Part shown: positions 3,729 to 36,905 of the stretch, one piece after another
How positions within the stretch are numbered: the stretch's first letter is position 1
How the letters are laid out: each line of letters starts with the position of its first letter
Assembly (NCBI GenBank): GCA_009726095.1
Contig: WLMZ01000001.1
Location: 270 to 64,269 of the forward strand
DNA: 64,000 bases
Source: Actinomycetota bacterium
GTDB taxonomy: Bacteria; Actinomycetota; Acidimicrobiia; Acidimicrobiales; Ilumatobacteraceae
Direction: 5' to 3'
Translations under genes and position numbers: made by a program
Notes under the pieces: model-generated
Told to the model about the DNA's origin: nothing
Databases searched by the model: none
Seen by the model: only the letters and a program-made list of their open reading frames with translations

Positions 3729-3796
3729 GAGGTGTACCAACCGTAGCGACCGGGGCCACCCGCCGGGTGTACCTCGGCATTCCCGGTTGGGGCGCG

Positions 3797-4375: not shown

Positions 4376-4589
4376 CAGCACTGTGGCCCTGCCGTGCGAA
4401 CAGCATCGTCGCCAGCCTGCCTCGGCCACCAGTTCCGATGCTCGTGCCGCATGACCGTCTCCTCACCGCCCCACGACGGCGTGCCACCGCCCCAGAAGCC
4501 CCCATCATAGGAACTCCACGCTCGGTACATCATCTCCCTGCATCGCCCCTCACGTCGGCTGGGGCACCCTCTCTGTAGGCTCACTCACA

Positions 4590-12006: not shown

Positions 12007-13153
12007 GATCCGCTCCGAGCTTCGCAGCGAGGGCGGCTGCCTCGGCATCGTCTTCGGCCTTGACCTTGGCCCGCAACAGTCCCACCTTGGCGGTGAGATC
12101 GGAGAAGAAGTCCGAGTCGGTGATCTCCTCAACGGCCTTGCGCCGGTTGACCTCGTCGATCTCCACCTTCAACACCTGGACCTGACGCACCAGGGTTCGT
12201 TCACGGGAACCAACGCGTTCTTTCATGATGTCGAAGGCAAGCGCTAGATCACTCATCTCATCGGAGAAGGTCGAGGTGGCGATGTCGCTCAGGTCGACCT
12301 CGTAGTCGCCATCGGCGATGAGCTGCGTGGCATTGGAGAGCCGGCCGAGCCGACGTGTGAGCCAGCCGGACAGGTACACGACGACGGCCAGCAGCACCAG
12401 GTAGGCAACACCGAACAGCGGGTAGAGCAAACGCAGCGCGCTGGACCGAACCTGATCGACGTAGGTGAGCGGATAATCGACTGCGAAAATCCCAACGACC
12501 TTGCCCGTGTGGTCCTTGATCGGGCTGAACGCTGACACCCAGTCGCCGTAGGCATCGACGTAGTTGTCGAACGAGACGGTGGTCAGCCCGGCCTTCATCT
12601 TGGCCTGTGTCTTGGCCGCTGTGGCGAGCGAATCGAGGCTCTGCAGAAAGCGCACACCATCGGGCTTGTCGCCCTTGGCCGGGTACCCGCCGGCGGCGAA
12701 CGAGGCCACGAAATTCAACGACCCATCGGCAGCAACGGTAACGGAGTACGGCTGCGCATCGGGGTTGATGTTGCGGATGCGCACCAGCTCTGCGACGTGC
12801 GCCCAGTAGTCGGCTGATGCCGGCCATTCGCTGTCTGCTGTCACGGTCTGGCCCGCCAAGAACCCCGCCGAGGCCGGATAGACGGCGCCGACCGTCGGCA
12901 CCGCCGGCTCGGCAACGAGCCGCTCGAACACGTCGCCGTCGATCGTGGCTGCACCACCGGTGGTGATGCTTTCCAACGTTGTATGGACGCGCGACGATGC
13001 CGTGTTGGTGGTGAACCGCAGCACCCAGACCGCCACCACGGCGAAGACCACCGTGAACCCCAACCCGAAGGCGAGCAACAACTTCCATCGCATGCCGAGA
13101 CGAAACTTCCGCCGGCTCCTGGGTGTCTCGGGGGTTGAAACTGGATCAGACAT
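11999..13153 (-). CDS. Cache-HAMP sensor protein without recognisable output domain
   Basis: N-terminal TM, then a Cache-like ectodomain (DAYGDWVSAFSPIKDHTGKVVGIFAVDY), a second TM and a HAMP domain (LTRRLGRLSNATQLIADGDYEVDL...EMSDLALAFDIM). It ends in a coiled-coil tail only. Confidence 0.7.
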   Translation of the reverse strand: MSDPVSTPETPRSRRKFRLGMRWKLLLAFGLGFTVVFAVVAVWVLRFTTNTASSRVHTTLESITTGGAATIDGDVFERLVAEPAVPTVGAVYPASAGFLAGQTVTADSEWPASADYWAHVAELVRIRNINPDAQPYSVTVAADGSLNFVASFAAGGYPAKGDKPDGVRFLQSLDSLATAAKTQAKMKAGLTTVSFDNYVDAYGDWVSAFSPIKDHTGKVVGIFAVDYPLTYVDQVRSSALRLLYPLFGVAYLVLLAVVVYLSGWLTRRLGRLSNATQLIADGDYEVDLSDIATSTFSDEMSDLALAFDIMKERVGSRERTLVRQVQVLKVEIDEVNRRKAVEEITDSDFFSDLTAKVGLLRAKVKAEDDAEAAALAAKLGADHA

Positions 13154-13249
13154 GACGGAGGACAGTAGCAGTCCTTGTACAGAACCAGAAATTTGTATCC
13201 GATGAACGGTGTACCCGATTCAGGTAGCGGACCTGCCGCCGGCGCAGGG

Positions 13250-16200: not shown

Positions 16201-16603
16201 GGCCAACGGACAGCACGGAACCCACGCTGACCGATGCGAGGGCGGCCACCGTCGTGGGCACCACCGTCGTGGGCACCACCGTCGTGGGCACCACCGTCGT
16301 GGGCACCACCGTCGTTGCCACCACCGTCGTTGCTGAGAGCACCGTCGTGGGCACCACCGTCGTGGTGTCCGCTGCCGAGGTGGCGGTTGGCGAAGTCGTC
16401 GGGGTGACCAGCGTGGTCGGCGGGGTCGAATCGACCCCGATGGTTCCAGACGTCCCGTTGCTGCTCCCCCGTATGGCCAGGGCACCGACCCCAATCGCTG
16501 CGACGCCACCAGCGATCCATGCGAGGCGCACCAGGCGCGTCCGGCGCCTACGTCGTGGCGATTGATCCGCTACAGAGAGATTCACAGCTGGCCTTCCTGC
16601 CAT
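13250..16603 (-). CDS. giant (1117 aa) membrane-anchored, Thr/Ser/Gly/Val-rich extracytoplasmic protein
   Basis: The N-terminus has an RRRRR-TM anchor, then a (PTTVV)n stalk, then about 950 aa of beta-rich low-charge sequence. No domain recognised. Confidence 0.7.
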   Translation of the reverse strand: MAGRPAVNLSVADQSPRRRRRTRLVRLAWIAGGVAAIGVGALAIRGSSNGTSGTIGVDSTPPTTLVTPTTSPTATSAADTTTVVPTTVLSATTVVATTVVPTTVVPTTVVPTTVVPTTVAALASVSVGSVLSVGPNTLTVASVSLSGQRYSGTAQAAVADLRFPVTFTYANPKEWSYQVAAGATASVNGTSVAVSGSVVDAAAVMSGIITMSVSPATPVRFGPSSSVSGTFRYSPAATSVPVFTGAASARLGSNLQFAAFVSYTSAGDWSITPAQSTATVALTDTIQLPLSALSGAISSVGGSQVWGLTATLSAPTDLIALKIGLSTATVTFTPNCPTTTSTKLCSGSVFMLLDGTLSAKIGGPVAAQSGVRFTATENLDTRAFTLDSTFDTTVIAEFANLTISTLRLAMSVNDNSYAVLKSGVVIPGGGVNGGFNIQVIGEGRMALPFAKDWKLPNIVLTYVNGGLVVAGDFAPHAVGPGSVSSFAYFDAEDTLATVMGNTITVPKRSYVFGAVMAMPAWLQAIGMPDKPLSSYMTYTSNGSLTLSAVIPEGVKLPSFSKDYTFVLTNATLSVTINPNPAVQTYTFTLAENGLLTISGASGNVKDIAIRLAMSYDPSVATTTFSVSANGLNGAAVWPNVMGVPGLDLNGFAISGQLWANSIPVGVGLAGSGTLPASLRQAMGINSTDPIPVSFVANVSLSSPCLDVSIGTVDGTTPVISIGGAVTATYAHFYASPLGCTVGTYVVPAGFSMTFHGAILKVPVDFNVTVNTNTPMTLKGNASIGGFTANGFTMDNVTATFVAGGYQLPHVGFAGGIRLNGVNVAVAGDATVFGFTLTGSAMLNIAGFNLDSAVTVKGYPGPILYSVQSSSSLDVGGLKVKVITDFGVSLSNLYYNGTGSISFPVAGSTASLAVSLGMDVLGHFNANAAVSIPLGGAFGSSALKLSTSLIPSSNPAASLNLNLSAPISISTSGFQFNATVGFIVANGVVSPAFDADVNVSGFTFPFRGIPIDNNWGFSRALNIDFAKSNSVGDKWGGLSASFSGVLAMTISSSAAPSFASWVKADLDAGYLGKWHGWGSVAAPIPMPELGKFCVSKKISWDLPWPAGSASKTFSVCVP
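16246..16335. repeat. 15-bp in-frame tandem repeat CCACCGTCGTGGGCA x6 (degenerating copies continue to about 16367)
   Basis: Read directly. It encodes (PTTVV)n on the minus strand, inside the giant protein gene. Confidence 0.9.
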
Positions 16604-16801
16604 CGCCAGAGCAACGAAGCACTGAGCCAGCCGCCGAGCCTAATAGTTGCACGACCACAGAAATCATGCAGTAGACAAGAAATTGATCATGTTCATGAGA
16701 TTCGCATACGATCTGGTCCAGCGAGACGCGCAACCATCCGTTGGGGTGCGCGCACATCGGCACGAACGATTCGCTCGACCTCTCAGAGGAAGGCTCCCAC
16801 C

Positions 16802-22080: not shown

Positions 22081-22446
22081 ATGGAAAACCACAACGAAGC
22101 AACAAAGACCAACAAGCACGACAAGGGCTTCACCCTCGTCGAACTGCTGATCGTGATCGTGATTCTGGGCATCTTGGCCACCGTGACGGTGTTCGCTGTG
22201 CGAGGCATCACCGACAAGGGCCAGACCAGTGCCTGTGCAGCCGACAAAAAGACGATGGAAGTCGCCGTCGAGTCGTACTTCGCTCAGAACGGTGGCACGA
22301 CCATCCCGACCGCCACCCCGGCAACGGCAACCGTGGGCACCACTGCCTCGGAGACGCTCAAGCTCGCAGGCTTCCTGCGTGACGTCTCGGACAAGTACAC
22401 CGCCAACGCAAACGGCAGCCTGACCGCCGTTCTACCTTGCACCTGA
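22081..22446 (+). CDS. pilA: type IV pilin (prepilin-type N-terminal cleavage/methylation domain)
   Basis: MENHNEATKTNKHDKG|FTLVELLIVIVILGILA is a class III signal peptide. SD GGGAGGA precedes the ATG. 121 aa. Confidence 0.9.
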   Translation: MENHNEATKTNKHDKGFTLVELLIVIVILGILATVTVFAVRGITDKGQTSACAADKKTMEVAVESYFAQNGGTTIPTATPATATVGTTASETLKLAGFLRDVSDKYTANANGSLTAVLPCT

Positions 22447-24676: not shown

Positions 24677-25837
24677 TCAGCGCGACCCGGCGGGCACGGA
24701 CTCGGCATTACCGGTGGATGCGGCCTGACCGGACGCCACCGTATTCTGGGCCAGCGCCGCAGCGCGTACGGTGTTTGCGTGCGCCATGATCTCCTTGGGG
24801 TAGGCGCTAATCTCGCACGCAGCCTCCATGGTGATCAGGCCGGAGGCCACCAGACGGGCCAGATCCATCTCGAGGGTCTGCATGCCCTCGCGCTGGCCCG
24901 TGGAAATCACGTTGCGCAGTTGACGGCTCTTGCCTTCGCGCACCAGGTTACGAACAGCCTCTGTACCCAACAGCACCTCATAGGCAGCCACGCGTCCCCC
25001 ACCCTCGACCGGGAGCAGACGCTGGCTGATGACACCCTGCAGCGCGCTGGCCAACTGGATCTGGATCTGGTCGCGGCGCTCGGCGGGGAACACGTCGACG
25101 ATTCTGTCGAGCGCCTGCGAGGCGTCGTTGGTGTGCAGCGTGGCAAACACGAGGTGGCCGGTCTCGGCCAACGACAACGTGATCGAAATGCTGTCAAGGT
25201 CGCGCATTTCGCCGAGCAGGATGACATCGGGGTCCTCGCGCAGTGCGCTGCGCAGGCCATCGGTGAAGCTGTTCACATCGGAGCCAACCTCGCGCTGGTT
25301 CACGAGCGCCATCTTGTGGGTGTGCACATACTCGACAGGGTCTTCGATGGTCAGGATGTGGCAGGGCCGTTCCTGGTTGATGCGATCGATCATCGCAGCC
25401 AAGGTGGTGCTCTTGCCCGAACCGGTGGGACCCACCACGAGCACCAATCCGTACGGCTTGTTCAGTAGCTCTGTGGCCGCCCGTGGAGCGCCGAGTTCTT
25501 CGAGCGAACGAACGCGGAACGGAACGACGCGCAGGGCCAGCGACAGGTGGCCGCGCTGACGAAAGGCGTTGGCTCGGAAGCGCCCGATGTCGCGCATTCC
25601 GAAGGAGAAGTCGACCTGGCTGTTGTCGTGCAGTTCCTCACGCTTGCGATCATCGAGCAAGGACATGACGATCCGCTCGATCGTCTCCGGTTCGAGCACC
25701 TCGACACCCTCGAAGGTGACCAGGACTCCATCACGGCGAGCCGTGGCCGGACGGCCCACGCTGAGGTGCAGGTCGCTGGCGCCGGCAGCGACCGTTGCCT
25801 GGAGCAATGTGACAAGCGCGGGGTCTGGCTGAATCAT
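24677..25837 (-). CDS. pilT: type IV pilus retraction ATPase PilT
   Basis: ASDLHL, Walker A GPTGSGKSTT, ILTIEDPVEY, ILLGEMRD, TGHLVFATLHTN. GGAGG lies 8 nt before ATG 25837. Confidence 0.9.
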   Translation of the reverse strand: MIQPDPALVTLLQATVAAGASDLHLSVGRPATARRDGVLVTFEGVEVLEPETIERIVMSLLDDRKREELHDNSQVDFSFGMRDIGRFRANAFRQRGHLSLALRVVPFRVRSLEELGAPRAATELLNKPYGLVLVVGPTGSGKSTTLAAMIDRINQERPCHILTIEDPVEYVHTHKMALVNQREVGSDVNSFTDGLRSALREDPDVILLGEMRDLDSISITLSLAETGHLVFATLHTNDASQALDRIVDVFPAERRDQIQIQLASALQGVISQRLLPVEGGGRVAAYEVLLGTEAVRNLVREGKSRQLRNVISTGQREGMQTLEMDLARLVASGLITMEAACEISAYPKEIMAHANTVRAAALAQNTVASGQAASTGNAESVPAGSR

Positions 25838-25887
25838 CTGACTAACCTCCGTTGGGGAGCCGCCCACCGCGGCGATGCGAAGGACTC

Positions 25888-26652
25888 ATGGTTATTACAT
25901 TTACGGCCGTCTACGGATTGCTGATCGGTTCGTTCCTGACCGTGGTCGTGGACCGCGTGCCACGGGGAAAGTCTATTGTCGCACCTGGATCGGCCTGCGG
26001 CGCGTGTGGGCTCCAATTGGGGCCACTCGATCTCGTGCCGGTACTCAGTTGGCTGGCACTGCGCGGTAAGTGCCGCCGCTGCAGGGCCCCGATCGGCATC
26101 GAGCCGCTCGTACTCGAACTCGCCACATCGGGGCTGTTCGTGGCCATCGAGGTGAAGTTCGGTCTCTCCTGGGAGCTCGGCGCTTACTGCGCACTTGCGG
26201 CCGGACTCGTGGCGCTGAGCTGGATCGACCTCAAGACCAAGCGCTTGCCACGCGAGATCATCTATGTCACGGCTGCGATCGGTGTGCCGTTGCTGTGTGT
26301 TGCGGCTCTGGTGACCCACGAACCGAAGCGGATCTGGATGCTGCTGCTCGGCGCGAGCATTGCGCTGGCCTTCATGGCTGGCGTGTATCTGCTCAGTCGT
26401 GGCGGCATGGGCGATGGCGACGTGCGTCTGTCTCCCCTGCTCGGCGCCTACCTCGGGTGGTTGAACCCGGGCTTCGTGGCCGTCGGGCTGTTCCTCGGGT
26501 TCCTGTTCGGTGCGGTGGTCGGCGTTGTCATGATGATCATGGGTCGTGCCGGTCGCAAGACAGCGGTGCCCTTCGGCCCGTTCCTGGCCGCTGGCACCAT
26601 GGCTGCCATCTGGGTTGGCCAACCCGCGATCGACCTGATCCTGCATCGCTGA
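25888..26652 (+). CDS. pilD: prepilin peptidase (A24 family)
   Basis: A CxxC...CxxC N-terminal region. The catalytic Asp contexts WIDLKTKRLP and GMGDGDVRL are present. Start is ATG 25888 or TTG 25852. Confidence 0.9.
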   Translation: MVITFTAVYGLLIGSFLTVVVDRVPRGKSIVAPGSACGACGLQLGPLDLVPVLSWLALRGKCRRCRAPIGIEPLVLELATSGLFVAIEVKFGLSWELGAYCALAAGLVALSWIDLKTKRLPREIIYVTAAIGVPLLCVAALVTHEPKRIWMLLLGASIALAFMAGVYLLSRGGMGDGDVRLSPLLGAYLGWLNPGFVAVGLFLGFLFGAVVGVVMMIMGRAGRKTAVPFGPFLAAGTMAAIWVGQPAIDLILHR

Positions 26653-26664
26653 TCCCCCGCCCGC

Positions 26665-27876
26665 TCAGATCGACTTCTTGGTGCTGTCGAGCACGCCGTA
26701 CATAGCCGACACCAGCGCCACCGCGACGAAACCCACGAGCAGACCCACGAAGATGATCATGATCGGCTCGAACATCGTGGTGAACTTCTTGATTCGGCTC
26801 TCCAGTTCGCGGTCGAAGTACAGGCTGGCGACCTCGAGCTGATCGTCGAGCGTTCCGGTCTCCTCGCCCACCTTGAACATCTGCTTGGCCGCACCGGGGA
26901 ACAACCCGGTGTCTGCGAGGGGACGGGCAAAGCCTCCACCCTCGAGCATGATCGCCTGCGCCTCTTCGAGCCGGGCCCGATACACGGTGTTGCTCGTTGC
27001 CTCGGTGGTGGTCTTCAGCCCCTCGGGAAGCGGCACGCCCGCCCGGATCATCGCGCCGAGAATGCGGCAGAATCGTTCGAGGATCGCGTAGTCGATGATG
27101 CCCTTGACCACCGGGATCTTGAGCACCAGCTTGTCCTTGGCCAGGCGTCCCCGGGGGGTCTTGGTCAGCCACAGGAACGTCGAGAGCACAATCATCAAGA
27201 ACGTGAACGGGATGTACCACATCGTGGTGAACAGCGATGCGCAGAACAGCAACGCTCTGGTGGGCAGCGGCAGGTCGGCGTGCAGTTCTTCGAACAGTGG
27301 TTTGAACTTGGGCAGCACATAGCCCGCAAGGATCGCCACGGTGAAGACAGCAAGCACCATGACGACCATCGGATACGACAGTGCAGACACCACCTTCGAG
27401 CGGGTCTCGACCTCGCGCTCGAGGTAGCCACCCAGGCTGTCGAGCGTCTCATCGAGCCGGCCGGTGAGCTCCGCCGACTCGAGAATGCCCATGTAGTAGG
27501 GCGGGAAGCACTCTGGGTGCATCCGTGCTGCAGCGGCCAACGTGCCGCCGTTGCGCAACCGCTCGACCATGCTGTTGAGCGTGCGGCGAAGAGCCACATC
27601 CTCGGTCTCGTCGCCGATGGTCTCGAGCGCCTCGGTGATGGGGATGCCGGCCTTGACGAACACGGCCAGCTGACGCGTGAAGTGCATCAGCTCCTTCTTC
27701 TTCACCTTCTCCTTGGTGAGCTCGAAGCTCAACGAGCCGCGGTGCTCCTCGAGCTTGGTGGGGAACAGGTTCTGGCCCATCAAGATCTGGCGTGCGTCGC
27801 CGATCGTGTCGGCTTTGGTGATTCCTTCAACCGCACTCCCGGTCTGGTCGATTGCGGCATAGGCGAACTTGGGCAT
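26665..27876 (-). CDS. pilC: type IV pilus platform protein PilC (GspF family)
   Basis: 403 aa from MPKFAYAAIDQTGS. Two GspF repeats with three TM segments. Confidence 0.9.
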   Translation of the reverse strand: MPKFAYAAIDQTGSAVEGITKADTIGDARQILMGQNLFPTKLEEHRGSLSFELTKEKVKKKELMHFTRQLAVFVKAGIPITEALETIGDETEDVALRRTLNSMVERLRNGGTLAAAARMHPECFPPYYMGILESAELTGRLDETLDSLGGYLEREVETRSKVVSALSYPMVVMVLAVFTVAILAGYVLPKFKPLFEELHADLPLPTRALLFCASLFTTMWYIPFTFLMIVLSTFLWLTKTPRGRLAKDKLVLKIPVVKGIIDYAILERFCRILGAMIRAGVPLPEGLKTTTEATSNTVYRARLEEAQAIMLEGGGFARPLADTGLFPGAAKQMFKVGEETGTLDDQLEVASLYFDRELESRIKKFTTMFEPIMIIFVGLLVGFVAVALVSAMYGVLDSTKKSI

Positions 27877-27887
27877 TGGTGGGTCTC

Positions 27888-29660
27888 CTAGTTGGCAAAC
27901 AGGGTGCGGACGACTTCGGGGATGGTGGTGACGTCGGACTCGACGAGCGTCATTGCCTCGCGCAACATGGTGCGCATTCCTTGGGCAACTGCGAGGCGGC
28001 GGAGTTCCTCGGTGGTGGCCCAGCCGACGATCAGACGCCGGAGCTCGGGGGTGATCCGCAAGAGCTCGTACACACCGATGCGGTCGCGGTAGCCGGTGCC
28101 GGCGCAGTAGTTGCAGCCGGCGCCATGGAAGAACTGTGTCTTGTCGCTGCCACCACTGTGCTGGCGAAAGACCGCCACCTCGTCTGCGCCCGGGGTGTAG
28201 GGCTCCTTGCACGAGTCACAGATCCGCCGCAGCAGACGCTGGCCGATGACGCCCACCACCGACGAGGCGATGAGGAAGGCCTCAATGCCCATGTCGAGGA
28301 AACGGTGCAGAGCAGCGACGCTGTCGGTGCCGTGCAGCGAGCTGAGCACGAAGTGACCGGTGAGCGCGCTCTGGATGGCGATTCGGGCCGTGTCGGCATC
28401 GCGGATCTCACCCACCAGAATCACATCGGGGTCCTGGCGCAGGATGGCCTTGAGACCCGTGGCAAAGGTGAGACCGGCCTGATCGTTGGTCTGGATCTGG
28501 TTGATGCCGGGGAACACGTACTCGACCGGGTCCTCGACCGTGGTCACGTTCTTGCCGCTCGAGTTGATCTCCTGCAGCGTGGCGTACAGCGTGGTGGTCT
28601 TGCCCGCACCCGTTGGCCCAGCGCAGATGACCATGCCGAACGGGGCATGCACCATCTTGGAATACTGCGCATAGGTGTCACGGGGAAAGCCGAGCTCGTG
28701 CAGACCGATCATCGACCGGTTCTTGTCGAGGATTCGCATGACGACCTTCTCGCCGAACACGGTGGCCACGCTGGCCACGCGAACGTCGACGTCCCTGCCA
28801 TCGATCGAGGTCGAGAACTGCCCGTCCTGAGGACGGCGACGCTCGACGATGTTCATCCCGCTCATGATCTTCAAGCGGCTGATGAGCGCACCGTGCACGC
28901 CGATCGGCAGGCTGAAGACCTCGACCAGGTTGCCGTCGATACGGAACCGGATGCGCAGGCTCTCGTCGAGCGGTTCCACATGGATATCGCTGGCGCGATC
29001 GCGCATGGCCTGGCCGACGATGCGGTTCACCAACTGGATGACCGGCGCCTGATCGTCGAGATTGACCTCGGCCGCCAGCGTCATCATGCGCTGCTGATCA
29101 TCGGGGATGTCGAACGCCTTGACCAGCCGGTCGACATCGGCGTCGGCACGCAACGTCGTATCGATGAAGGTGCGCACTGTGGCCGGGTCACCGACGAACC
29201 AGCGCAGCGGGTGGGTGGTTTCTTTCTCAACCGCAGCGCGGCGGTAGGGAGAGGGGTCTGCAGACAGCACCACGATGGTGTCGCCGTCGAGCGCCACGGG
29301 AATCACCTGATGGGCCCGGATCACGGCCTCGGGGAGCATGTTGATGATCTCGACGTCGAGCTCGACTCCCTTCGTGTCGGCAGCAGGGAGGCCGAGCACC
29401 TTGGCAACGGCCAACGCGATCTCTTGACGACCACAGGAGAAGCGGCTCAATGCCGTCTCGGCGAACTGCAAGAGGTTGCCGTTCGCGATCTGCAGGGCGG
29501 AGGCGAGATGCTCGGCGGTGAGCTGTCCACTCTCGACCAGGATCTGGCCGACCTGCAGGCACTCGGCAGCGCTCTCACCCATCGTCGGGGCTGCACCAGC
29601 AACGGGCTCGCTGGTTGCAACCGTGGCCGCTTCTTTGGGGGGTTTCGTGAAAAGGGCCAT
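27888..29660 (-). CDS. pilB: type IV pilus assembly ATPase PilB (GspE family)
   Basis: T2SSE N-domain, Walker A GPTGAGKTTT, VEDPVEY, ILVGEIRD, and a tetracysteine motif (CDSC...CNYC). Confidence 0.95.
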   Translation of the reverse strand: MALFTKPPKEAATVATSEPVAGAAPTMGESAAECLQVGQILVESGQLTAEHLASALQIANGNLLQFAETALSRFSCGRQEIALAVAKVLGLPAADTKGVELDVEIINMLPEAVIRAHQVIPVALDGDTIVVLSADPSPYRRAAVEKETTHPLRWFVGDPATVRTFIDTTLRADADVDRLVKAFDIPDDQQRMMTLAAEVNLDDQAPVIQLVNRIVGQAMRDRASDIHVEPLDESLRIRFRIDGNLVEVFSLPIGVHGALISRLKIMSGMNIVERRRPQDGQFSTSIDGRDVDVRVASVATVFGEKVVMRILDKNRSMIGLHELGFPRDTYAQYSKMVHAPFGMVICAGPTGAGKTTTLYATLQEINSSGKNVTTVEDPVEYVFPGINQIQTNDQAGLTFATGLKAILRQDPDVILVGEIRDADTARIAIQSALTGHFVLSSLHGTDSVAALHRFLDMGIEAFLIASSVVGVIGQRLLRRICDSCKEPYTPGADEVAVFRQHSGGSDKTQFFHGAGCNYCAGTGYRDRIGVYELLRITPELRRLIVGWATTEELRRLAVAQGMRTMLREAMTLVESDVTTIPEVVRTLFAN

Positions 29661-29709: not shown

Positions 29710-31053
29710 CTACCACGATGACAGCGACGATTCAGACGAGTTCTGGGTGGGGGGTGGTGGCGCCATGCCCGGCGATTGGGGCCCGGAGGAGAGCAGATCG
29801 CCCTTGCGGACATACTGCGTAGGGTCGAGCTCGGTGATCGCCCGTTCCAGTTCCTCGAGGCGTTCGAGCTGAATGGCCGTGCTCACGTCCATGACTGTCT
29901 CGGTCACGGTTGCTTCGACCTCCGCGATGCGAACATTGATCTTGTCGAACTGCTCACCGGTACTCGACGCAACGCGTTCGAGTTCGATTCTGACCAGCAT
30001 CGCCTCACCGATCGCGCTCGACATCTGATCGCGCAGCTGGGAGATTGCCTCCTCATCGATCTTGCCGATCTGCTCGGCCACCTCGTTGATGCGCTGCATC
30101 ACGTCGAGGTTCTGATTCTCGAGTTCGATGACACGCTGCGACAGGGCGATGATGGCCTCGTCGATACCGCTGCTGATCCGGCCGACCGTGGCCTCCATGG
30201 CCGCCAGACGCGTGCCGGCGTGCTCGTTGACCCGCTCTTCCATGGCGAGCATGCGGTTGACGACCCGGGCATCGTTGTCCTCGATACGGCGACCGAAGTT
30301 CGTGGACTGTTCCACCACGAACTGACGCATCGCCACCATCGCCTCATCGGCACGCTGGCTGAGAGCCATGGTGCGCTCGTCGAGGCTGCTGCTAAGCACG
30401 CGACCGGAATCGTCGAGCCGCCGGTTGAACGCGGCGGTGGTGTCGTTCACGTGTTGCACAAGCGCCGACGACTGCTCGTCGAAGCGACGCGCTGCCCGCT
30501 GGAGTTCCTCGATACGGCTCGCCATCAGCTCGGTGCTGTGCTCGAAGCGCTGCTGGAGCGGCGCTGAGGCCGCTTCGATCTGGGCAGGCACTGCAAGCGC
30601 GACCTCGTCGGTGACCCGCTGGAGCCGACCTTCCACCTCGGTGAAACGCCAGTGCTGATTGGCTGCGAACTCGGTGAGTCGTTCCTCGAGTGCTGCCTGC
30701 AGGGCGTTCTCGTACTGCTCGTTGGTTTGCTGCGAGCGGGCGAGTTCGGCGCGTACCTGGTCCAATTGACCCTGAACGTGCGCCAGGACTTCAGCACGCC
30801 CGGCTTCGCCGGCCTGCTGAACTGCGTCGGCACGAGCGGCCATGGCCCCGAAATAGCGGGTGAGCTGATGCTCGACCGCTGCCAGGATTGCCTTGCTCGT
30901 TGCATCACCGCCGACAACCTGCGTCGAACTGAGCGACGACGCGGATGACGTCGGATCCGCGGATCCATCTGAATGTTGCTGCCTTGCCACGAAATAACTA
31001 TCGACAAGTTTGCCGCAATCTTGAGGAAGTTCCGATGGATTGGCCCCAGCCAC
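29710..31053 (-). CDS. long coiled-coil protein, first gene of the pilB-pilC operon (start uncertain)
   Basis: About 370 aa of heptad-like, E/R/Q/A-rich helix with no TM. The C-terminus is PPPPTQNSSESSLSSW. The first ~30 codons of the longest ORF (GTG 31053) have AT-rich third positions, so the true start may be GTG 30990 or ATG 30843. Confidence 0.6.
   Translation of the reverse strand: MAGANPSELPQDCGKLVDSYFVARQQHSDGSADPTSSASSLSSTQVVGGDATSKAILAAVEHQLTRYFGAMAARADAVQQAGEAGRAEVLAHVQGQLDQVRAELARSQQTNEQYENALQAALEERLTEFAANQHWRFTEVEGRLQRVTDEVALAVPAQIEAASAPLQQRFEHSTELMASRIEELQRAARRFDEQSSALVQHVNDTTAAFNRRLDDSGRVLSSSLDERTMALSQRADEAMVAMRQFVVEQSTNFGRRIEDNDARVVNRMLAMEERVNEHAGTRLAAMEATVGRISSGIDEAIIALSQRVIELENQNLDVMQRINEVAEQIGKIDEEAISQLRDQMSSAIGEAMLVRIELERVASSTGEQFDKINVRIAEVEATVTETVMDVSTAIQLERLEELERAITELDPTQYVRKGDLLSSGPQSPGMAPPPPTQNSSESSLSSW
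30953..30966. promoter_or_regulatory. perfect 14-bp palindrome GGATCCGCGGATCC
   Basis: Read directly. It lies in the low-GC 5' region of the coiled-coil/pilB operon, 156 nt from the divergent exonuclease ATG. Confidence 0.25.
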
Positions 31054-31121: not shown

Positions 31122-32003
31122 ATGAAGGTTCACCTCATCGACGGCACCTACGAGCTGTTCAGACAACACTTCGGGCAGGCGGCGCGCCACAGCGAGCCCG
31201 TGCCGAACGCCGCCACCATCGGGGTCCTGGCCTCGACACTGCAACTCGTTGCGCAGGGGGCCACGCACATCGGGGTGGCCAGCGACCACGTGATCGAGAG
31301 CTTCCGGAACGACCTGTGGCCCGGATACAAGACCAGTGCCGGAATGGCCGAGGAACTCCTCACCCAGATCCCTCTGATGGAGACCGCTCTCGAGGCGATG
31401 GGGATGACCACATGGGCAATGGTCGACCACGAGGCCGACGATGCGTTGGCCGCAGCGGCCATGGTGGCAGATGCCGACCCACGGGTGGAGCAGGTTCTGA
31501 TCATCACACCCGACAAAGATCTCGGGCAGTGCGTGCATGGCACCCGCGTCGTGCAATACGACCGCCGCAAGGACGAGATCATCGACGAGGCCGCTGTCAT
31601 CGCCCGCTTCGGCGTTGCGCCGTCATCGATTGCCGATTACCTGGCCCTGGTGGGCGACTCGGCCGACGGGTATCCGGGTCTGGCCGGGTGGGGGGCCAAG
31701 AGCGCCAGCGCCGTGCTGGCCCGGTTCGCCACCATCGAGGCCATCCCGGCATCGGCCGACGAATGGGGCATCGAGGGGCTCCGCGGTGCCGCCAAACTGG
31801 CGGCCTCGCTCGACAGCCAACGCGACCTCGCGCTGCTGTTCCGCCGTATCGCCACGGTCGTCACCGACATTGATGTGGGGGTCGTCGACGACTGGCGTTG
31901 GCGGGGGGTCACCCCGGCCTTCGCCGAACTGGCCGGGCAGATCGGCGCTGTTCACCTGATCGAACGAGCCGCACGGCTGGCGAAAAAGATCGACGCCCGC
32001 TGA
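31122..32003 (+). CDS. 5'-3' exonuclease (FEN/PIN_53EXO family)
   Basis: MKVHLIDGTYELFR, HEADDALAAAA, and LVGDSADGYPGLAGWGAKSA (H3TH). Confidence 0.85.
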   Translation: MKVHLIDGTYELFRQHFGQAARHSEPVPNAATIGVLASTLQLVAQGATHIGVASDHVIESFRNDLWPGYKTSAGMAEELLTQIPLMETALEAMGMTTWAMVDHEADDALAAAAMVADADPRVEQVLIITPDKDLGQCVHGTRVVQYDRRKDEIIDEAAVIARFGVAPSSIADYLALVGDSADGYPGLAGWGAKSASAVLARFATIEAIPASADEWGIEGLRGAAKLAASLDSQRDLALLFRRIATVVTDIDVGVVDDWRWRGVTPAFAELAGQIGAVHLIERAARLAKKIDAR

Positions 32004-32197
32004 CTGAGGTGACGGCCAGGTTCCCTGCGGCACACAGACGGTACCGTTGAAGGCTGCTACCTTCCGGTCCTGACCTGGTTCCCGGACGGCTGTTGCACAG
32101 GACCCGACCGCCACCTCACCCAACGGGCATCGAACGGTGTGGTCAGACTAGCCGGACGCTACCCTTCTCACACCTGCTGGGCTCATCGCCCGGCCGG

Positions 32198-32285
32198 GGA
32201 GGGTTGCGAGAGCGGCCGAATCGGCACGCCTGGAAAGCGTGTGAGGGGCAACCCTCCGTGGGTTCAAATCCCACACCCTCCGCCA
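32198..32285 (+). tRNA. tRNA-Ser (anticodon GGA)
   Basis: Hand-folded. Acceptor GGAGGGT/ACCCTCC, anticodon stem CACGC/GCGTG with loop CTGGAAA, long variable arm, T-loop GGTTCAAATCC, encoded CCA. Confidence 0.9.
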
Positions 32286-32797
32286 TGTTGGACCGTGTGG
32301 TCTCCGATGACGTCGCCGCAATGGCGTATGCACTGCACCAGGCGACGCTGGCACTTGCGCACGACGATGTACCCGTTGGTGCAGTGGTGGTGCGCAACGG
32401 CGTCGTGATCGCTGCCCGGCACAACGAGCGCGAACTCACCGGCGACCCCACCGCCCACGCCGAGATCCTGGCCATCCGCGACGCCGCCGAGCTCATCGGC
32501 CATTGGCGGCTCGAACAGTGCACGCTGTACGTCACCCTCGAGCCGTGCACCATGTGCGCCGGCGCGTTGGTCAACGCCCGCGTGCCGCGGGTCGTGTTCG
32601 GCGCCACCGACCCCAAAGCCGGAGCCGGAGGCAGCCTGTACAACGTGCTTGCCGACCCGCGGCTGAATCACCGTTGCGTTGTCGAGACCGGGGTGATGGC
32701 CGACGAGTGCGGAGCGATCCTGAAGACCTTTTTCGGGCTCCGACGGGCGGCCGGGCGGGCTTCAGCGGCGGCGAACGCCGTTGATGAGCCGGCGTAG
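32285..32797 (+). CDS. tadA: tRNA adenosine(34) deaminase
   Basis: HAEILAIR and TLEPCTMCAGAL (CDA zinc motifs). ATG 32285 shares its A with the tRNA 3' CCA. The alternative start is ATG 32321. Confidence 0.9.
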   Translation: MLDRVVSDDVAAMAYALHQATLALAHDDVPVGAVVVRNGVVIAARHNERELTGDPTAHAEILAIRDAAELIGHWRLEQCTLYVTLEPCTMCAGALVNARVPRVVFGATDPKAGAGGSLYNVLADPRLNHRCVVETGVMADECGAILKTFFGLRRAAGRASAAANAVDEPA

Positions 32798-34012
32798 AGC
32801 GCCTTTGCGGCTATCGCTGAGCGGCTGCCGGGCATCGGATTGAGCGTTCGGCTGGGCAGCGATCACCGGGCCTGCGGCCGCAGTGGTGGCCATCAAGTCA
32901 GCCATCGTTGGCCGGTCGGCACTGCCCGGTGCGGTGACGTGCACCGGACCGAAGTTGACGCCGGCACCTCCGAGAGCCGACTGCGTGGCGGCCTCGATCG
33001 CGGCGATCGCGTCGCGTACTGCGGCGGCAACATCTATGGGGACCGGGATGGAGTCGCTGTCGTTGTCGCTGTCGCTGGCGGGCTCAACGGAATCTCTGGT
33101 TGGTTGCTCGATGATCGGCGTCACGACCTGTACAGGCGCCGAGATCATCGAAACGAACAGCGGCGCAGTATCGGTGGCGGGGACAACGGGGTTCGACGCG
33201 GTAATCGGCTTGATCGGCACGAACGACTGCGTCGTCGAGATGCTTGCCAGGGGCGGCAGCGGCGCTGGCGCTGGCTCGGCGGGGCGCTGCTCGAGGGCCG
33301 CTGGCTGGGCCGGAGGCGTCACGACGGCGGGTTCGACCAACGGCGCCACCACCGGGAGAATACGGCCCGTGTAGGCGGCCGGTTTGGGCGGCAGCGTCGG
33401 TAGCGGCTGCAGGAGGGACGCTGGATCGACATCGACGACGTTGTCGCTGCGCGCGGGCACGGAGGCAGTCGGTGACGGTGGCTCCCACGGGCTCGCCGGC
33501 ACCGCACCGGCAGGTTCCGCTGCTGCGGATGCAACCGGGACGGACCAACGCACCACACCAGAAGGATGGTGCCGATACATGGTGATCGACGACGCCAGAA
33601 CCTGAAGTTGGGCGATCTCGGTCAGGGTCTGCTCGGTCATCAGCTCGAGTACCAGTTCCACCACGTCGCGCAGCACCGTGGTGTCACGGTCGAACAGGCG
33701 GCCAAGGTAGTCGACCCCGTTCAGCCGTACGATGCCCCGATCCAGTTGATCGGGGGTGATCGCGCCGGCCATCACCAAACGAGCGGCTAGCGGCTCGTCG
33801 GTGTCACGTTCGGCCAGGTAGACGACGCCCGAGTTGAGGTAGATCGTGATTGTCCCAGACAAGGCGGTGATCAACGACAGCTCGCCCGTCAGGCGAGCGT
33901 GACGCGCCTCGTCGATCAGTTCCCACGCAGCACGTGTCGGTTGCACCGTGGCTGGGTCGGGTTCGGCAGTGTGGCGTTCGGTGTCCATGGCATCATTCTG
34001 GGTCATGGTCAT
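32762..34012 (-). CDS. PATAN/DUF4388-like N-terminal domain protein with long Pro/Ala-rich C-terminal region
   Basis: ARLTGELSLITALSGTITIYLNSGVVYLAE...LVMAGAITPDQL resembles DUF4388. The remaining ~250 aa are low complexity. Its ATG overlaps the GTPase stop (ATGA). Confidence 0.5.
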   Translation of the reverse strand: MTMTQNDAMDTERHTAEPDPATVQPTRAAWELIDEARHARLTGELSLITALSGTITIYLNSGVVYLAERDTDEPLAARLVMAGAITPDQLDRGIVRLNGVDYLGRLFDRDTTVLRDVVELVLELMTEQTLTEIAQLQVLASSITMYRHHPSGVVRWSVPVASAAAEPAGAVPASPWEPPSPTASVPARSDNVVDVDPASLLQPLPTLPPKPAAYTGRILPVVAPLVEPAVVTPPAQPAALEQRPAEPAPAPLPPLASISTTQSFVPIKPITASNPVVPATDTAPLFVSMISAPVQVVTPIIEQPTRDSVEPASDSDNDSDSIPVPIDVAAAVRDAIAAIEAATQSALGGAGVNFGPVHVTAPGSADRPTMADLMATTAAAGPVIAAQPNAQSDARQPLSDSRKGALRRLINGVRRR

Positions 34013-34593
34013 CGGGTTCCTCCGTGACCGGACAGGGCGAAGTCGTTCGATTGGAGCAGGGCGACCAGCACCTCTGCCACCACCTCGCGACCCGAGGCAG
34101 GATCCACGAGTTGGCAGGGGATGACCGGCACCGACATCTTGGCACCGAGGGCATCGGCAACCCGGCGCGCCTGCGCAGGGTCGCCACAGCGGTTCACGGC
34201 GATGACCAATGGCGCCTCGAGGCCGGTCATCACCAGGGTCAACATCTGGCGTGCCTCGGCGAAGGTATCGGGGGCCTCGGCGTCGATCACGAAGGTCACA
34301 ACGTCGACATCGGCTTTCAGGATGTCGGTCATGAAGCGGAATCGATCCTGGCCGGGCGTTCCGAACATCAACAGGTGGATGGTCTCCTCGCCGTCCTCGA
34401 GACCGTCGAGGACGAACGTACCGAAGTCCATCGCCACGGTCGTGTTCTCCTTCACCTCGGCCTCGTCACCGGTGGTCGCCACCTCGGTGGTCACGACCGG
34501 GCTCTGCGAGATCGATTGGATCAACGATGTCTTGCCTGCAGCGAATGGGCCCGTAACCAGGATCTTGAAGGTGTGCTCTGTGAGATGCGACAC
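34009..34593 (-). CDS. small Ras-like GTPase of the MglA/CvnD (conservon) type
   Basis: G1 GPFAAGKTS and G3 FGTPGQDRF. 194 aa. A strong SD (GGGGAGG) precedes the GTG. Confidence 0.8.
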   Translation of the reverse strand: MSHLTEHTFKILVTGPFAAGKTSLIQSISQSPVVTTEVATTGDEAEVKENTTVAMDFGTFVLDGLEDGEETIHLLMFGTPGQDRFRFMTDILKADVDVVTFVIDAEAPDTFAEARQMLTLVMTGLEAPLVIAVNRCGDPAQARRVADALGAKMSVPVIPCQLVDPASGREVVAEVLVALLQSNDFALSGHGGTR

Positions 34594-34596
34594 GAT

Positions 34597-35034
34597 TCAG
34601 CGACCTCCCCGGACAACGGTGCGTAACGAGTCCGCACGGGACCTCACCTCGGAATTGATGTGATGCAGGTTGATGCTCGGACGGGCGAGCACCGTGAGCA
34701 CGCCCTCCTTGCCGACTGCGTACACGATCACAATGCCAGTGTCAGAGCGCACGATCACCTCTTCCAGTTCACGACCACCCACCATGCTCATCAGTTGTCC
34801 GGCCAGCCCCATGGTCGCGGCAATCATCGCCGACCGACTCGGGTCGTGCATCAGATCGTCCGAGTGCGCCAGGCTCCGACCGTCAGCACTGGCCACTGCC
34901 ACGCCAATCACACCGGCAACCGACCGGACAATCGAGTTCAGAATGGCCTGGGGATTCTGTCGCTGGTGAACCAACGACGCGACCGACACAGCAGCAGCGA
35001 GGGGGTTCGGGTTGATCATGATGAGATCCGTCAC
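34597..35034 (-). CDS. Roadblock/LC7 domain protein (MglB/CvnB-like)
   Basis: 145 aa. GVIGVAVASADGRSLAH...MIAATMGLAGQL...VIVRSDTGIVIVYAVG is the typical Roadblock pattern. Confidence 0.75.
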   Translation of the reverse strand: MTDLIMINPNPLAAAVSVASLVHQRQNPQAILNSIVRSVAGVIGVAVASADGRSLAHSDDLMHDPSRSAMIAATMGLAGQLMSMVGGRELEEVIVRSDTGIVIVYAVGKEGVLTVLARPSINLHHINSEVRSRADSLRTVVRGGR

Positions 35035-35162
35035 GGCGTAGGTATCGGCACGTCTTGGCCAACTCTTGAACCGGACTCCTGTCGAGTTCTCGGCCTCCGA
35101 ACCCAGATTTCGGGGCCCACACGGGTGCGAGAGTCCGTTTCGTTCCCGCTAGCCTGACGAGC

Positions 35163-35253
35163 GGAAGGGTGCCAGAGCGGACGAATGGGCCGGTCTCGAA
35201 AACCGTTGAGGCGTTCTGCGTCTCCGTGGGTTCAAATCCCACCCCTTCCGCCA
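35163..35253 (+). tRNA. tRNA-Ser (anticodon CGA)
   Basis: Hand-folded. Acceptor GGAAGGG/CCCTTCC, anticodon loop CTCGAAA, long variable arm, GGTTCAAATCC, encoded CCA. Confidence 0.9.
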
Positions 35254-35257
35254 CGGC

Positions 35258-35285
35258 AACAGGCCACCCACACGGGTGGCCTGTT
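35258..35285 (+). terminator. terminator hairpin after tRNA-Ser(CGA)
   Basis: 12-bp stem AACAGGCCACCC / GGGTGGCCTGTT with loop ACAC. Confidence 0.6.
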
Positions 35286-35306
35286 CGTGCGTGCAGCACC
35301 GGACCG

Positions 35307-36905
35307 CTAGCAGCGCGTGCCCACCGCTGGCACCGAGAGGGTGAGTAGGTAGTTGTCGATGGTCTGCTTCGAGCAGTCGTTCACGTCGTACCCGGTGTGC
35401 TGATCGGCCTCGACGACCAGCAACACTCCCTGCTCGAGCGCCTTGGTCATGTTCTCGCTGCTCGACAGCGGGGTGGCGGGGTCGCCCGTGGTGCCCACGA
35501 CCAGGATCGGGCCGGCCCCCCGACCCGTGATCGCCACCCGGGGGTCCTGCGACGGCGGATAGAAGGTGCAGAAGTAGTTGCCCGTGGTGCCCGGCGCGAA
35601 CCGTGGCGCCACCGCACGGTACCTGGCCGATTCCGCATCCTCCTGAGCCACGGTTGGGCGCTCGGCGGTGTCCATGCAGCTGATCGTCTGGAACGCCTCG
35701 AGCGAGTTGTCGTAGCTGCCGTCCGGTTGGCGCTGGAAATACGAGTCGTACAACGCCAACAGACCGGCGCCCTTGCCCTGTTGGGCATCAGCCAGCGCCT
35801 GCTCGAGGCCGGACCACAACGTTTGGGTGTACATCGCCTGTCCCACCGCCGTGAGCGCGACGTTTCGGGTGACATCGGGTCGCCCCTTCATGCTGGGGAT
35901 CGGCGTGCGGTCGAGGGACAGCATCAGGGCATCAAACGCCGACGCCGCATCACCGCGGTTGTAGAACGGGCACGTGGAATCGCTGCTGCAGCGCTTCAGA
36001 AACGTGGCGATGGCGTTCTCGAAACCCTGACTCTGCTGCAGGCCACTGGTGAGGAAATCGGCGTTGGGGTCAGCTGCACCGTCGAGCACGGCCGCGCGGA
36101 CGGTGCGGGGAAACAACGTGGCCCAGGTGGCCCCCAGCTCGCTGCCGTAACTGAATCCGAAGTACGAGATCGTCTGCTCGCCGAGCGCCCTGCGGATGGC
36201 ATCCATGTCGCGGGCGGCATTGTTGGTGCCGACGTACTGCAGGATCTTGGCGTTCTTGGTGGTGCAGGCGGTCTCGAATTCCTTGGCGAGATCGATGATC
36301 TGCTGACGCTCTGCATCAGTGTCGGGGGTGATGTCGGTGCTGGCGAAGTACTTGTCGTAGTTGTCGATGCAGTCGATGGCCGGCGTGCTCAGGCCTGTTC
36401 CACGTGGGTCCCAGGCGACGATGTCGAAACGGGCGAGCAGGGACTTGGAGTAGACCTGATCGGCGTACTCGGCGAAATCACTGCCGCCGAAACCGGGACC
36501 ACCAGGGTTCACCAACAGGCTGCCGATGCGATCCTTCGGGCTGGTGGCACGGTGACGCGCAACGTGGAGGTCGAACGTGCCCTTCGATGGGTCGCTGTAG
36601 TCGATCGGCACCACCAGGCTGCCGGTCTGCACCCGTGCGCTGCCGGCGAAATCCTGCCAACCGAAGGCGGCATCGCCGGTCGGAGTGGACGGCGGAGTGG
36701 ACGGCGGAGTGGTTGGGTCTGTGGCGGTCGTGGCGGGAGTGCTGGCACCAGGTGCGGTGGTTGCGGGTGCGCCGGTATCTGGCGTGGAATCACTGCCGCG
36801 CGAAGCGCTCTTGGTCGCTGTCACGCCGTCGTTTCGACCGTCGCCGCAGGCGGCCGCAATCATGACCGAGCAGACGAGCAGGGCAATGGTACGACGGCGG
36901 CGCAT
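35307..36905 (-). CDS. secreted alpha/beta hydrolase, tripeptidyl-aminopeptidase (S33 TAP)-like lipoprotein
   Basis: MRRRRTIALLVCSVMIAAACG (lipobox), LLVNPGGPGFGG, nucleophile elbow GFSYGS. Confidence 0.75.
   Translation of the reverse strand: MRRRRTIALLVCSVMIAAACGDGRNDGVTATKSASRGSDSTPDTGAPATTAPGASTPATTATDPTTPPSTPPSTPTGDAAFGWQDFAGSARVQTGSLVVPIDYSDPSKGTFDLHVARHRATSPKDRIGSLLVNPGGPGFGGSDFAEYADQVYSKSLLARFDIVAWDPRGTGLSTPAIDCIDNYDKYFASTDITPDTDAERQQIIDLAKEFETACTTKNAKILQYVGTNNAARDMDAIRRALGEQTISYFGFSYGSELGATWATLFPRTVRAAVLDGAADPNADFLTSGLQQSQGFENAIATFLKRCSSDSTCPFYNRGDAASAFDALMLSLDRTPIPSMKGRPDVTRNVALTAVGQAMYTQTLWSGLEQALADAQQGKGAGLLALYDSYFQRQPDGSYDNSLEAFQTISCMDTAERPTVAQEDAESARYRAVAPRFAPGTTGNYFCTFYPPSQDPRVAITGRGAGPILVVGTTGDPATPLSSSENMTKALEQGVLLVVEADQHTGYDVNDCSKQTIDNYLLTLSVPAVGTRC

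Follow-up and report, generated by a model that had tools for sequence, protein, structure and literature searches.

A three-gene Roadblock–GTPase operon with a putative remote PATAN-like partner protein near the type IV pilus genes of an Ilumatobacteraceae bacterium

The three-gene locus

A 64,000-nucleotide stretch of DNA, termed here the window, from an Actinomycetota bacterium of the family Ilumatobacteraceae (class Acidimicrobiia; GenBank assembly GCA_009726095.1, contig WLMZ01000001.1, positions 270 to 64,269 of the forward strand) carries three consecutive minus-strand genes. These encode a Roadblock/LC7 protein, a small GTPase and a third protein, termed P3. The trio is a three-gene operon for a small-GTPase switch with a dedicated partner protein, and the module belongs to a kind of system that is known but uncharacterised, of which it is a divergent variant specific to its lineage. 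The genes and the parts of P3 are listed below by window position.

34597-35034, minus strand: Roadblock/LC7 (MglB-like) protein, 145 amino acids (aa), Pfam Robl_LC7; predicted regulator (GTPase-activating protein, GAP) of the adjacent GTPase
34009-34593, minus strand: small Ras-superfamily GTPase of the MglA family, GTPGQ type, 194 aa
32762-34012, minus strand: third gene, for P3 (416 aa), with a PATAN-like domain at the N-terminus, an acidic Ala/Pro-rich linker that is disordered, and two helices
33533-33931, minus strand: PATAN/DUF4388-like alpha/beta domain, P3 residues ∼28-160 (DUF4388 family-level matches, AlphaFold2 model)
32972-33037, minus strand: conserved mid helix, P3 residues 326-347, motif VPxDVAxAVRRAIAAIE, nearly invariant in the full-length alignment
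32768-32815, minus strand: C-terminal basic amphipathic helix, P3 residues 400-415, GALRRLINGVRRR; predicted helix

An earlier sequence-only reading of the window gave the same coordinates and described the genes as tightly packed, and both points are exact. The TGA stop of the Roadblock gene is followed by 3 nt (ATC) and then by the GTG start of the GTPase gene, with GGGGAGG found 10 nt 5′ of that GTG. The GTPase stop overlaps the P3 start in the sequence ATGA, and GGAGG lies 6 nt 5′ of the P3 start. The Roadblock start is ambiguous by ∼15 nt, either GTG at 35034 or ATG at 35019.

The loci compared are from a scan of one genome per species, in which the best 80 of 131 matches were kept. The gap between the GTPase and P3 genes, stop to start, measures −8 to +8 nt in 48/53 loci with the GTPase. 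All three genes are kept in dozens of Acidimicrobiia genomes, and thus the trio represents real genes and not chance open reading frames (ORFs). A paralogue search within the window revealed no second copy of the Roadblock, GTPase or P3 gene. A promoter/terminator consensus scan of positions 32000-35500 gave no sites, the consensus being uninformative for a high-GC actinobacterium, and an Rfam scan found no cis-regulatory RNA 5′ of the operon. The Rfam yield consists of two tRNAs, the signal recognition particle (SRP) RNA and one sub-threshold match at 35198-35250, which overlaps a tRNA-Ser and is taken as spurious.

The Roadblock protein and the GTPase

The identities of the first two proteins, as given by the sequence-only reading, are borne out by family searches. 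The Roadblock protein matches Pfam Robl_LC7 with E=3.9e-11; NCBIfam gives only a weak, sub-threshold MglB match. Its closest solved relatives by sequence are the Robl_LC7 protein 7f8m (9e-6) and Mycobacterium Rv3364c (4e-4). An A-D-G motif is invariant in 40 Roadblock orthologues. The Asp-Gly pair is a mark of MglB partners that are coupled to Group 2-5 MglA proteins (PMC4316618). MglB-coupled systems are recognised by a Roadblock gene within four genes and by Asp-Gly; here the Robl_LC7 gene, with its invariant ADG, adjoins the GTPase gene.

The GTPase matches Pfam ATP_bind_1 (E=2.9e-13) and Ras (E=4.4e-8), as well as Roc and Arf. The motifs G1 (GPFAAGKT), G2 (TTVAMDFG) and G3 (FGTPGQ) are invariant or nearly so in 52 orthologues, and the VNRC of G4 is invariant in the same set. 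The position after VNRC is D, G or N among the sequences shown, with D in Ilumatobacter coccineus and others, and G in the window protein (N-R-C-G-D). The canonical G4 of Group 5 is [NT]KxD, whereas most orthologues here have N-R-C-D, a change of Lys to Arg.

Thr-Thr in G2 together with GTPGQ in G3 defines MglA Groups 2-5, and Group 1 MglA proteins, those of Myxococcus/Thermus, have Arg-Thr in G2 and TVPGQ in G3 (PMC4316618). The window GTPase has GTPGQ and N-T-T-V, i.e. it is of the Group 2-5 catalytic type and not of the Group 1 type. Accordingly, Thr-Thr, GTPGQ and Asp-Gly together mark the two proteins as an MglA/MglB-type couple of non-Group-1 catalytic type.

No solved MglA is present among the 15 PDB sequence matches of the GTPase at E≤0.001. 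The best tblastn match among plasmids is a Deinococcus GTPase encoded beside a Roadblock gene (41% identity, 100 bits), compared with 87 bits for the best Streptomyces CvnD, which belongs to a canonical kinase-Roadblock-DUF742-GTPase conservon. The ATP_bind_1 match is partial both in the window GTPase (model positions 55-166 of 240, 51 bits) and in the Deinococcus GTPase (62 bits), whereas that of Streptomyces CvnD is full length (positions 1-238, 108 bits). In addition, G4 has the form [NT]-R-x-D in the Acidimicrobiia and Deinococcus GTPases (T-R-Q-D in Deinococcus), as opposed to N-Q-F-P in Streptomyces CvnD. A second, distant GTPase paralogue (32% identity) is found in a rearranged Ilumatobacteraceae locus (L069, 14058-14561, minus strand), ∼4 kb downstream of the module.

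The third protein, P3

Full-length P3 has no Pfam match, Response_reg (REC) included, and belongs to no NCBIfam family. A homology search gave 174 homologues; 120/120 among the matches listed are without a precomputed Pfam domain, and the named homologues are from Ilumatobacteraceae. An exhaustive profile search revealed 415 clusters at 50% identity with E≤1e-3 and 360 with E≤1e-10. P3 is therefore a discrete family. It is seen in Acidimicrobiia, including the cultured I. coccineus. A tblastn search of 72,556 plasmids with the P3 consensus gave nothing meaningful.

Alignment reveals three conserved modules: the N-terminal domain (∼130 aa), the mid helix and an extreme C-terminal motif. In the AlphaFold2 model of the full-length protein, residues 29-158 are folded and confident, residues 161-320 and 348-399 are disordered, and helices are formed by residues 326-347 and 400-415. 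The Pro/Ala-rich stretch reported by the sequence-only reading is found at residues 161-400 (19.6% Ala, 17.5% Pro), and the linker has a net charge of −14.

Conserved positions of the N-terminal domain are W30, TGE42-44, Y58, G62, Y65, A67, LGRxF and YRHHxSGxxRW. AlphaFold2 models this domain with a predicted local distance difference test score (pLDDT) of 81.8 and a predicted template modelling score (pTM) of 0.70, in the order three beta-strands, short helices, a long helix and a beta-hairpin. The domain had been called PATAN/DUF4388 from its appearance, and at the family level this call has support, as a remote relationship. DUF4388 (PF14332; Pfam gathering score 25 bits) is matched by 24/40 family members (12/18 and 12/22 diverse N-terminal domains, scanned singly), with a best E of 6.3e-6, and no other family recurs in more than two members of either scanned set. 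With 26.1 bits (E=9.4e-6) across model positions 11-70 of 122, the family consensus is just over the cut-off. Against PDB sequences, the P3 profile matched only designed helical and TPR proteins at E≥0.004, which are taken as spurious. P3 thus appears to be a remote PATAN-like relative, supported at the family level and marginal for the window protein alone.

The mid helix is predicted with a pLDDT of 70-86, and it is retained as DEVAEAVRRALAAID in a clade that has no adjacent GTPase pair. The extreme C-terminal motif in the alignment is R(S/G)ALRRLIxxLRR, and ALRRLIxxLR is found in the last 40 aa of 205/254 P3 family proteins. The C-terminal 14-mer has a hydrophobic moment of 0.61, the highest outside the folded domain. 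This helix may be a membrane-targeting element or an element that binds the GTPase or Roadblock protein; its basic amphipathic character would be akin to that of the MinD and FtsA membrane-targeting sequences.

Of the new observations, the most informative is that the C-terminal helix and the GTPase pair occur together. The helix motif is present in 37/45 P3 orthologues that have an adjacent GTPase, but in only 1/24 of those that do not. The sole exception is a locus (L008) whose upstream sequence is cut by a contig end.

Conservation of the locus

The locus labels are nearly all those of Acidimicrobiia or of broader actinobacterial metagenome-assembled genomes; two are from other groups. Homology searches with the window proteins delineate a conserved block: ABC – hydrolase – [Roadblock – GTPase] – P3 – tadA – exonuclease – coiled-coil – pilB – pilC – pilD – pilT – DUF429. 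Individual members are kept as follows, counted over the loci with enough flank.

GTPase adjacent to P3: 48/74 loci
pilB downstream, median 4.8 kb: 44/48 loci
hydrolase upstream: 54/60 loci
ABC transporter upstream: 43/48 loci
exonuclease downstream: 54/57 loci

Fifteen loci keep P3 and pilB and have no GTPase pair. A distinct clade of 23 loci has P3 directly after a tRNA-Ser sequence, without Roadblock or GTPase, and in some of these loci there is no room for the pair. The tRNA-derived sequence, recognised by way of translated ORFs, is immediately 5′ of P3. P3 of this clade has a median length of 314 aa, as against 520 aa. The N-terminal domain and mid helix are kept, the distal linker and C-terminal basic helix are missing, and the protein ends soon after the mid helix.

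The cultured bacterium I. coccineus YM16-304 (AP012057.1, L082) has the same locus, at ∼296.3-299.0 kb, with a P3 of 563 aa. No CvnA or DUF742 gene is found beside its trio among the neighbours with Pfam annotation. Upstream of the ABC transporter gene, I. coccineus (L082 28-5536) and ∼20 Ilumatobacteraceae loci have a PA14 gene together with two genes of prepilin-like type. The I. coccineus prepilin-like genes display the GFTLPE motif and encode 188 and 630 aa, and the PA14-domain gene encodes 1018 aa. These genes stay with the module in the rearranged loci L033, L040 and L069. In that clade, therefore, the GTPase module lies between two pilus-related gene groups. The window has no prepilin-like or PA14 genes of the Ilumatobacteraceae type upstream. 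In loci with broken synteny the ABC/hydrolase side remains attached to the module, which is followed by genes for ribosomal proteins or by others; in L052, for example, ribosomal protein genes are found downstream of GTPase and P3.

Genomic neighbourhood in the window

The genes and RNAs that flank the operon, in order from its upstream side, are given below.

35163-35253, plus strand: tRNA-Ser(cga), the operon's upstream boundary (ARAGORN, Rfam)
32285-32797, plus strand: tadA-type tRNA adenosine deaminase (Pfam MafB19-deam 4.9e-41, dCMP_cyt_deam_1 3.4e-28); context, outside the module
32198-32285, plus strand: tRNA-Ser(gga) (ARAGORN, Rfam)
32011-32109, minus strand: bacterial small SRP RNA (Rfam RF00169, 73.9 bits, E=7.7e-16), between the 5′-3′ exonuclease gene and tRNA-Ser(gga)
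29710-31053, minus strand: coiled-coil protein, 447 aa, head of the pilB-pilC operon; only weak Apolipoprotein-like Pfam matches
27888-29660, minus strand: pilB (Pfam T2SSE 1.7e-120)
26665-27876, minus strand: pilC (Pfam T2SSF)
25852-26652, plus strand: pilD, prepilin peptidase (A24_N_bact 2.1e-28), between pilC and pilT
24677-25867, minus strand: pilT (T2SSE 3.7e-47)
22081-22446, plus strand: type IV pilin, 121 aa, KGFTLVELLIVIVILGILA (N_methyl 5.3e-10)

The bracketing of the module by two tRNA-Ser genes and the distance of about 3 kb to pilB, both proposed by the sequence-only reading, agree with the data; the pilB start is 3.1 kb from the P3 stop. On the 5′ side of the operon, tRNA-Ser is followed by a TAP-like alpha/beta hydrolase gene (minus strand) and an ABC exporter gene (plus strand). 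The 5′-3′ exonuclease gene (plus strand) lies beyond the SRP RNA, on the pilB side. The pilin gene is 2.2 kb past pilT, after DUF429 and FAD-oxidoreductase genes. A minus-strand ORF at 25834-26646 was rejected as a gene, being an antisense shadow of pilD. The flanking tRNA genes had suggested a mobile island; this is ruled out by the GC content, which is uniform over the region, by the lack of an integrase and by the conserved synteny.

The 3′ ends of P3 (minus strand) and tadA (plus strand) show a convergent overlap of 36 nt at 32762-32797, and the tadA ATG overlaps the final base of tRNA-Ser(gga). The 447-aa coiled-coil protein is kept at its site in 49/52 Acidimicrobiia loci and in I. coccineus, and a relative is encoded at 18710-19828 in L069. 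It is a candidate for a so far uncharacterised pilus protein with an accessory or regulatory role.

In the window the trio adjoins neither a CvnA-like kinase gene nor a DUF742 gene, as had been claimed from the sequence; it is bordered by tRNA-Ser and the hydrolase gene at its 5′ end, and by tadA, tRNA-Ser, SRP RNA and the exonuclease gene at its 3′ end. Thus, the trio is not a conservon fragment. The only HAMP protein of the window is ∼20 kb off (11999-13219, minus strand, 406 aa), has HAMP as its sole match and has no HATPase. It follows a 1129-aa ORF (13250-16639, minus strand) that displays good coding statistics (GC content at third codon positions 0.82) and zero Pfam matches.

Comparison with known systems

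MglB homologues are found near PATAN genes, as the work of Makarova et al. (2006) is cited in PMC4316618, and MglA/MglB homologues are regularly encoded near PATAN genes (Han et al., 10.1101/2021.06.11.447907). Trios of the type MglB>PATAN>MglA, PATAN>MglA>MglB and similar are listed for MglA proteins of Group 5 from Aquificae, Chloroflexi, Cyanobacteria, Deinococcus-Thermus and one actinobacterium, Acidothermus cellulolyticus (Wuichet and Søgaard-Andersen, 2015; PMC4316618, Table S2). The Acidimicrobiia module shares with these the side-by-side genes for a Roadblock/MglB homologue, for an MglA-family GTPase of ∼175-200 aa whose G2 contains TT and whose G3 contains GTPGQ, and for a PATAN-type protein. 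It differs in several respects. The PATAN-like domain of P3 is so divergent that its listed homologues are without a precomputed Pfam domain, and in P3 it is followed by an extended disordered linker, the conserved mid helix and the amphipathic C-terminal helix. The G4 motif reads N-R-C-(D/G/N) and not [NT]KxD. The order here is MglB>MglA>PATAN, and the P3 family is seen only in Acidimicrobiia. To our knowledge, the MglB-MglA-PATAN trios are experimentally uncharacterised and have no assigned function. The Acidimicrobiia trio is best filed with these catalogued neighbourhoods and not with conservons.

The sequence-only reading had framed the module as conservon-like, with a PATAN protein in the CvnC slot. 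This frame was given up: the module is closer to the catalogued Group 5 trios, and the GTPase is nearer to that of Deinococcus than to CvnD. Actinobacterial conservons, CvnA-CvnB-CvnC-CvnD (Komatsu, 2006), contain a Group 2 MglA. They have in common with the present module the phylum, a Roadblock protein and a GTPGQ-type GTPase with an ATP_bind_1 match. However, the CvnA sensor kinase and CvnC (DUF742) are missing here, only 3 nt separate Roadblock and GTPase, and the third gene is unrelated; P3 has no DUF742 match in Pfam, whereas the genuine conservon that was compared has DUF742. The Group 2 GTPase has NxFD in G4, DAR in G5 and a full-length ATP_bind_1 match. The window GTPase lacks these features, having NRC(G/D/N) in G4 and a partial ATP_bind_1 match.

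The Myxococcus/Thermus MglA-MglB polarity module (Group 1; RomR/RomX, SgmX, FrzS, SopA) likewise consists of a small GTPase and a Roadblock GAP, with type IV pilus genes nearby. It differs in having TVPGQ where GTPGQ is found here; the Acidimicrobiia GTPase has Thr-Thr and no intrinsic arginine finger beside the G2 threonine, and it has no REC, TPR or RomX-type partners. The layout of P3, with its folded N-terminal domain, Pro-rich linker and conserved C-terminal part, recalls that of RomR. In Myxococcus, MglA recruits PilB via SgmX, with which two PATAN proteins, both unstudied, co-occur (PMC11580455).

In Synechocystis, PATAN-REC regulators bind PilB1 (Han et al., 10.1101/2021.06.11.447907). 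These cyanobacterial PatA-type proteins, PixG/PilG/PixE, resemble P3 in having a PATAN-type domain and in being encoded close to the genes of type IV pili. They are distinguished from it by a receiver domain and a chemotaxis operon, both missing here; the input of P3 would be a GTPase and not phosphorylation, and the homology of P3 to PATAN is marginal.

The Deinococcus sp. D7000 plasmid CP058535.1 (L084) has, at 3249-4994, a trio of a 248-aa hypothetical protein, a GTPase and a Roadblock protein. The 248-aa protein was considered as a reference PATAN and rejected, as it has no Pfam match and hhalign against the P3 family gives a probability of 0.2%. GTPase–Roadblock pairs may have further unannotated partner families.

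Proposed mechanism and alternative explanations

MglB acts as a GAP or regulator on MglA, and by analogy GTP hydrolysis by the GTPase is most likely under the control of the Roadblock protein. In the model that we propose, and that we hold to be somewhat the more probable account, an MglA/MglB-type switch operates with P3 as its dedicated partner. The GTPase, of GTPGQ type, would cycle between GTP- and GDP-bound forms, with the Roadblock protein, probably a dimer, as its cognate GAP or regulator. The GTP-bound form would engage P3, which would be an effector or scaffold. The PATAN-like N-terminal domain would function as a protein-interaction module, and the long disordered acidic Ala/Pro-rich linker would bear one conserved docking helix. 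The C-terminal helix may tether the complex to the cytoplasmic membrane, or may itself be the element acted on by the GTPase/Roadblock pair. P3 would recruit or regulate a target through its PATAN-like domain and mid helix, and the outcome would be that a membrane-associated machine is controlled either spatially or in an on/off manner.

As the target we tentatively favour the type IV pilus motor (PilB/PilT), whose genes lie 2-8 kb away. The neighbourhood contains a full pilA/pilT/pilD/pilC/pilB set, and the conservation of pilB downstream is consistent with the pilus link that the sequence-only reading had drawn; beyond overall synteny that link gained no support, unrelated genes being kept as often. 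In full, the proposal would be that, in Acidimicrobiia, polarity or activity of the monoderm type IV pilus is set by a switch specific to this lineage. The GTPase and Roadblock GAP would act via a membrane-tethered, divergent PATAN-like effector, whose C-terminal helix was gained or retained with the pair, and would position or activate PilB/PilT. Taken as a whole this proposal is speculative and rather unlikely.

Several observations weigh against the switch model with P3 as effector and against its pilus target. The PATAN assignment is affected by the low score of the window protein itself, whose N-terminal 164 aa give 18 bits against DUF4388 (E=0.0032), under the 25-bit cut-off; for this protein taken singly, the earlier call is marginal. 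The DUF4388 alignment is limited to the N-terminal half of the model (11-75 of 122). Foldseek with the P3 N-terminal model finds no match in the PDB at E≤0.001, and since no PDB structure resembles the model, there is no structural confirmation of PATAN. The correlation between C-terminal helix and GTPase pair may represent a single evolutionary event, and the locus counts lack independence because all loci are from one class. P3 appears to have no strict need for the GTPase, as there is an entire clade in which P3 and the pilus genes are retained with no Roadblock–GTPase pair. With respect to the pilus, four rearranged loci keep GTPase and P3 with no pilB within 10 kb. The adjacency of pilB is kept no better than that of the unrelated ABC transporter, hydrolase and exonuclease genes (90–95%), and housekeeping genes on the opposite strand (tadA, tRNA-Ser, SRP RNA, exonuclease) are situated between the module and the pilB operon. 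Because of these last two points, the pilus link is one that we infer.

The same points can be read in favour of a GTPase switch with a different output, e.g. cell polarity or growth-zone placement, division, or envelope or secretion control, with pilus proximity a matter of inherited gene order. That the module remains with the ABC/hydrolase side after synteny breaks is in keeping with such an output, and known actinobacterial Roadblock/GTPase modules, the conservons, control development or drug resistance and not pili (PMC4316618). On the other hand, the little that is known of PATAN domains, and of GTPases of the MglA family, implicates type IV pili, and the Ilumatobacteraceae module is found between prepilin-like genes and the pilB operon. 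A non-pilus output is a possible explanation, if a doubtful one, and about as probable as the pilus target. The clade of 23 loci without the pair raises a further question, whether P3 is an autonomous scaffold or adaptor whose core is the PATAN-like domain and the DEVAxAVRRA helix, the Roadblock–GTPase pair and the C-terminal helix being a later regulatory add-on in some lineages. The position of P3 right after a tRNA-Ser sequence in that clade, sometimes with no room for the pair, and the end of the protein shortly after the mid helix fit this explanation. Yet the pair is translationally coupled to P3 wherever it is present, the change could be either a gain or a loss of the pair, and a GTPase could be encoded elsewhere in the genomes of the clade. 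We regard an autonomous P3 as improbable.

Least credible by far is descent from an ordinary actinobacterial conservon (CvnA-D) that has decayed through loss of the kinase and DUF742 genes. The resemblance of the Roadblock protein to the mycobacterial conservon protein Rv3364c and the NCBI name of relatives, 'ATP/GTP-binding protein', which is also that of CvnD, speak for it. But CvnA and DUF742 genes are missing beside the trio both in the window and in I. coccineus, and homology searches with the window proteins recover the same set of neighbours in the other loci. The genuine conservon (L085) consists of kinase, Roadblock, DUF742 and a GTPase with a full-length ATP_bind_1 match, as opposed to the partial one here, and the present arrangement is stably conserved with an unrelated third gene.

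Significance

The MglA/MglB paradigm has been built almost wholly on Myxococcus, Thermus and Bdellovibrio, and the MglB-MglA-PATAN trios, with function unassigned, are present in at least five phyla. The P3 locus is a cleaner entry point to these trios. It is a compact, translationally coupled operon, and its partner protein has an interpretable layout, i.e. interaction domain, linker, docking helix and amphipathic tail. The clade that lacks both the GTPase pair and the tail provides a natural 'experiment', and the model is testable in a cultured host with the same locus, I. coccineus YM16-304. Should the pilus link fail, P3 would still represent an unannotated family of ∼400 clusters that deserves a Pfam or NCBIfam entry. 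If the link is true, monoderm Actinomycetota also control type IV pili through a GTPase. A pilus switch of this type would be the first GTPase-based pilus control in Actinomycetota, and would provide the first assigned function for the MglB-MglA-PATAN trios.

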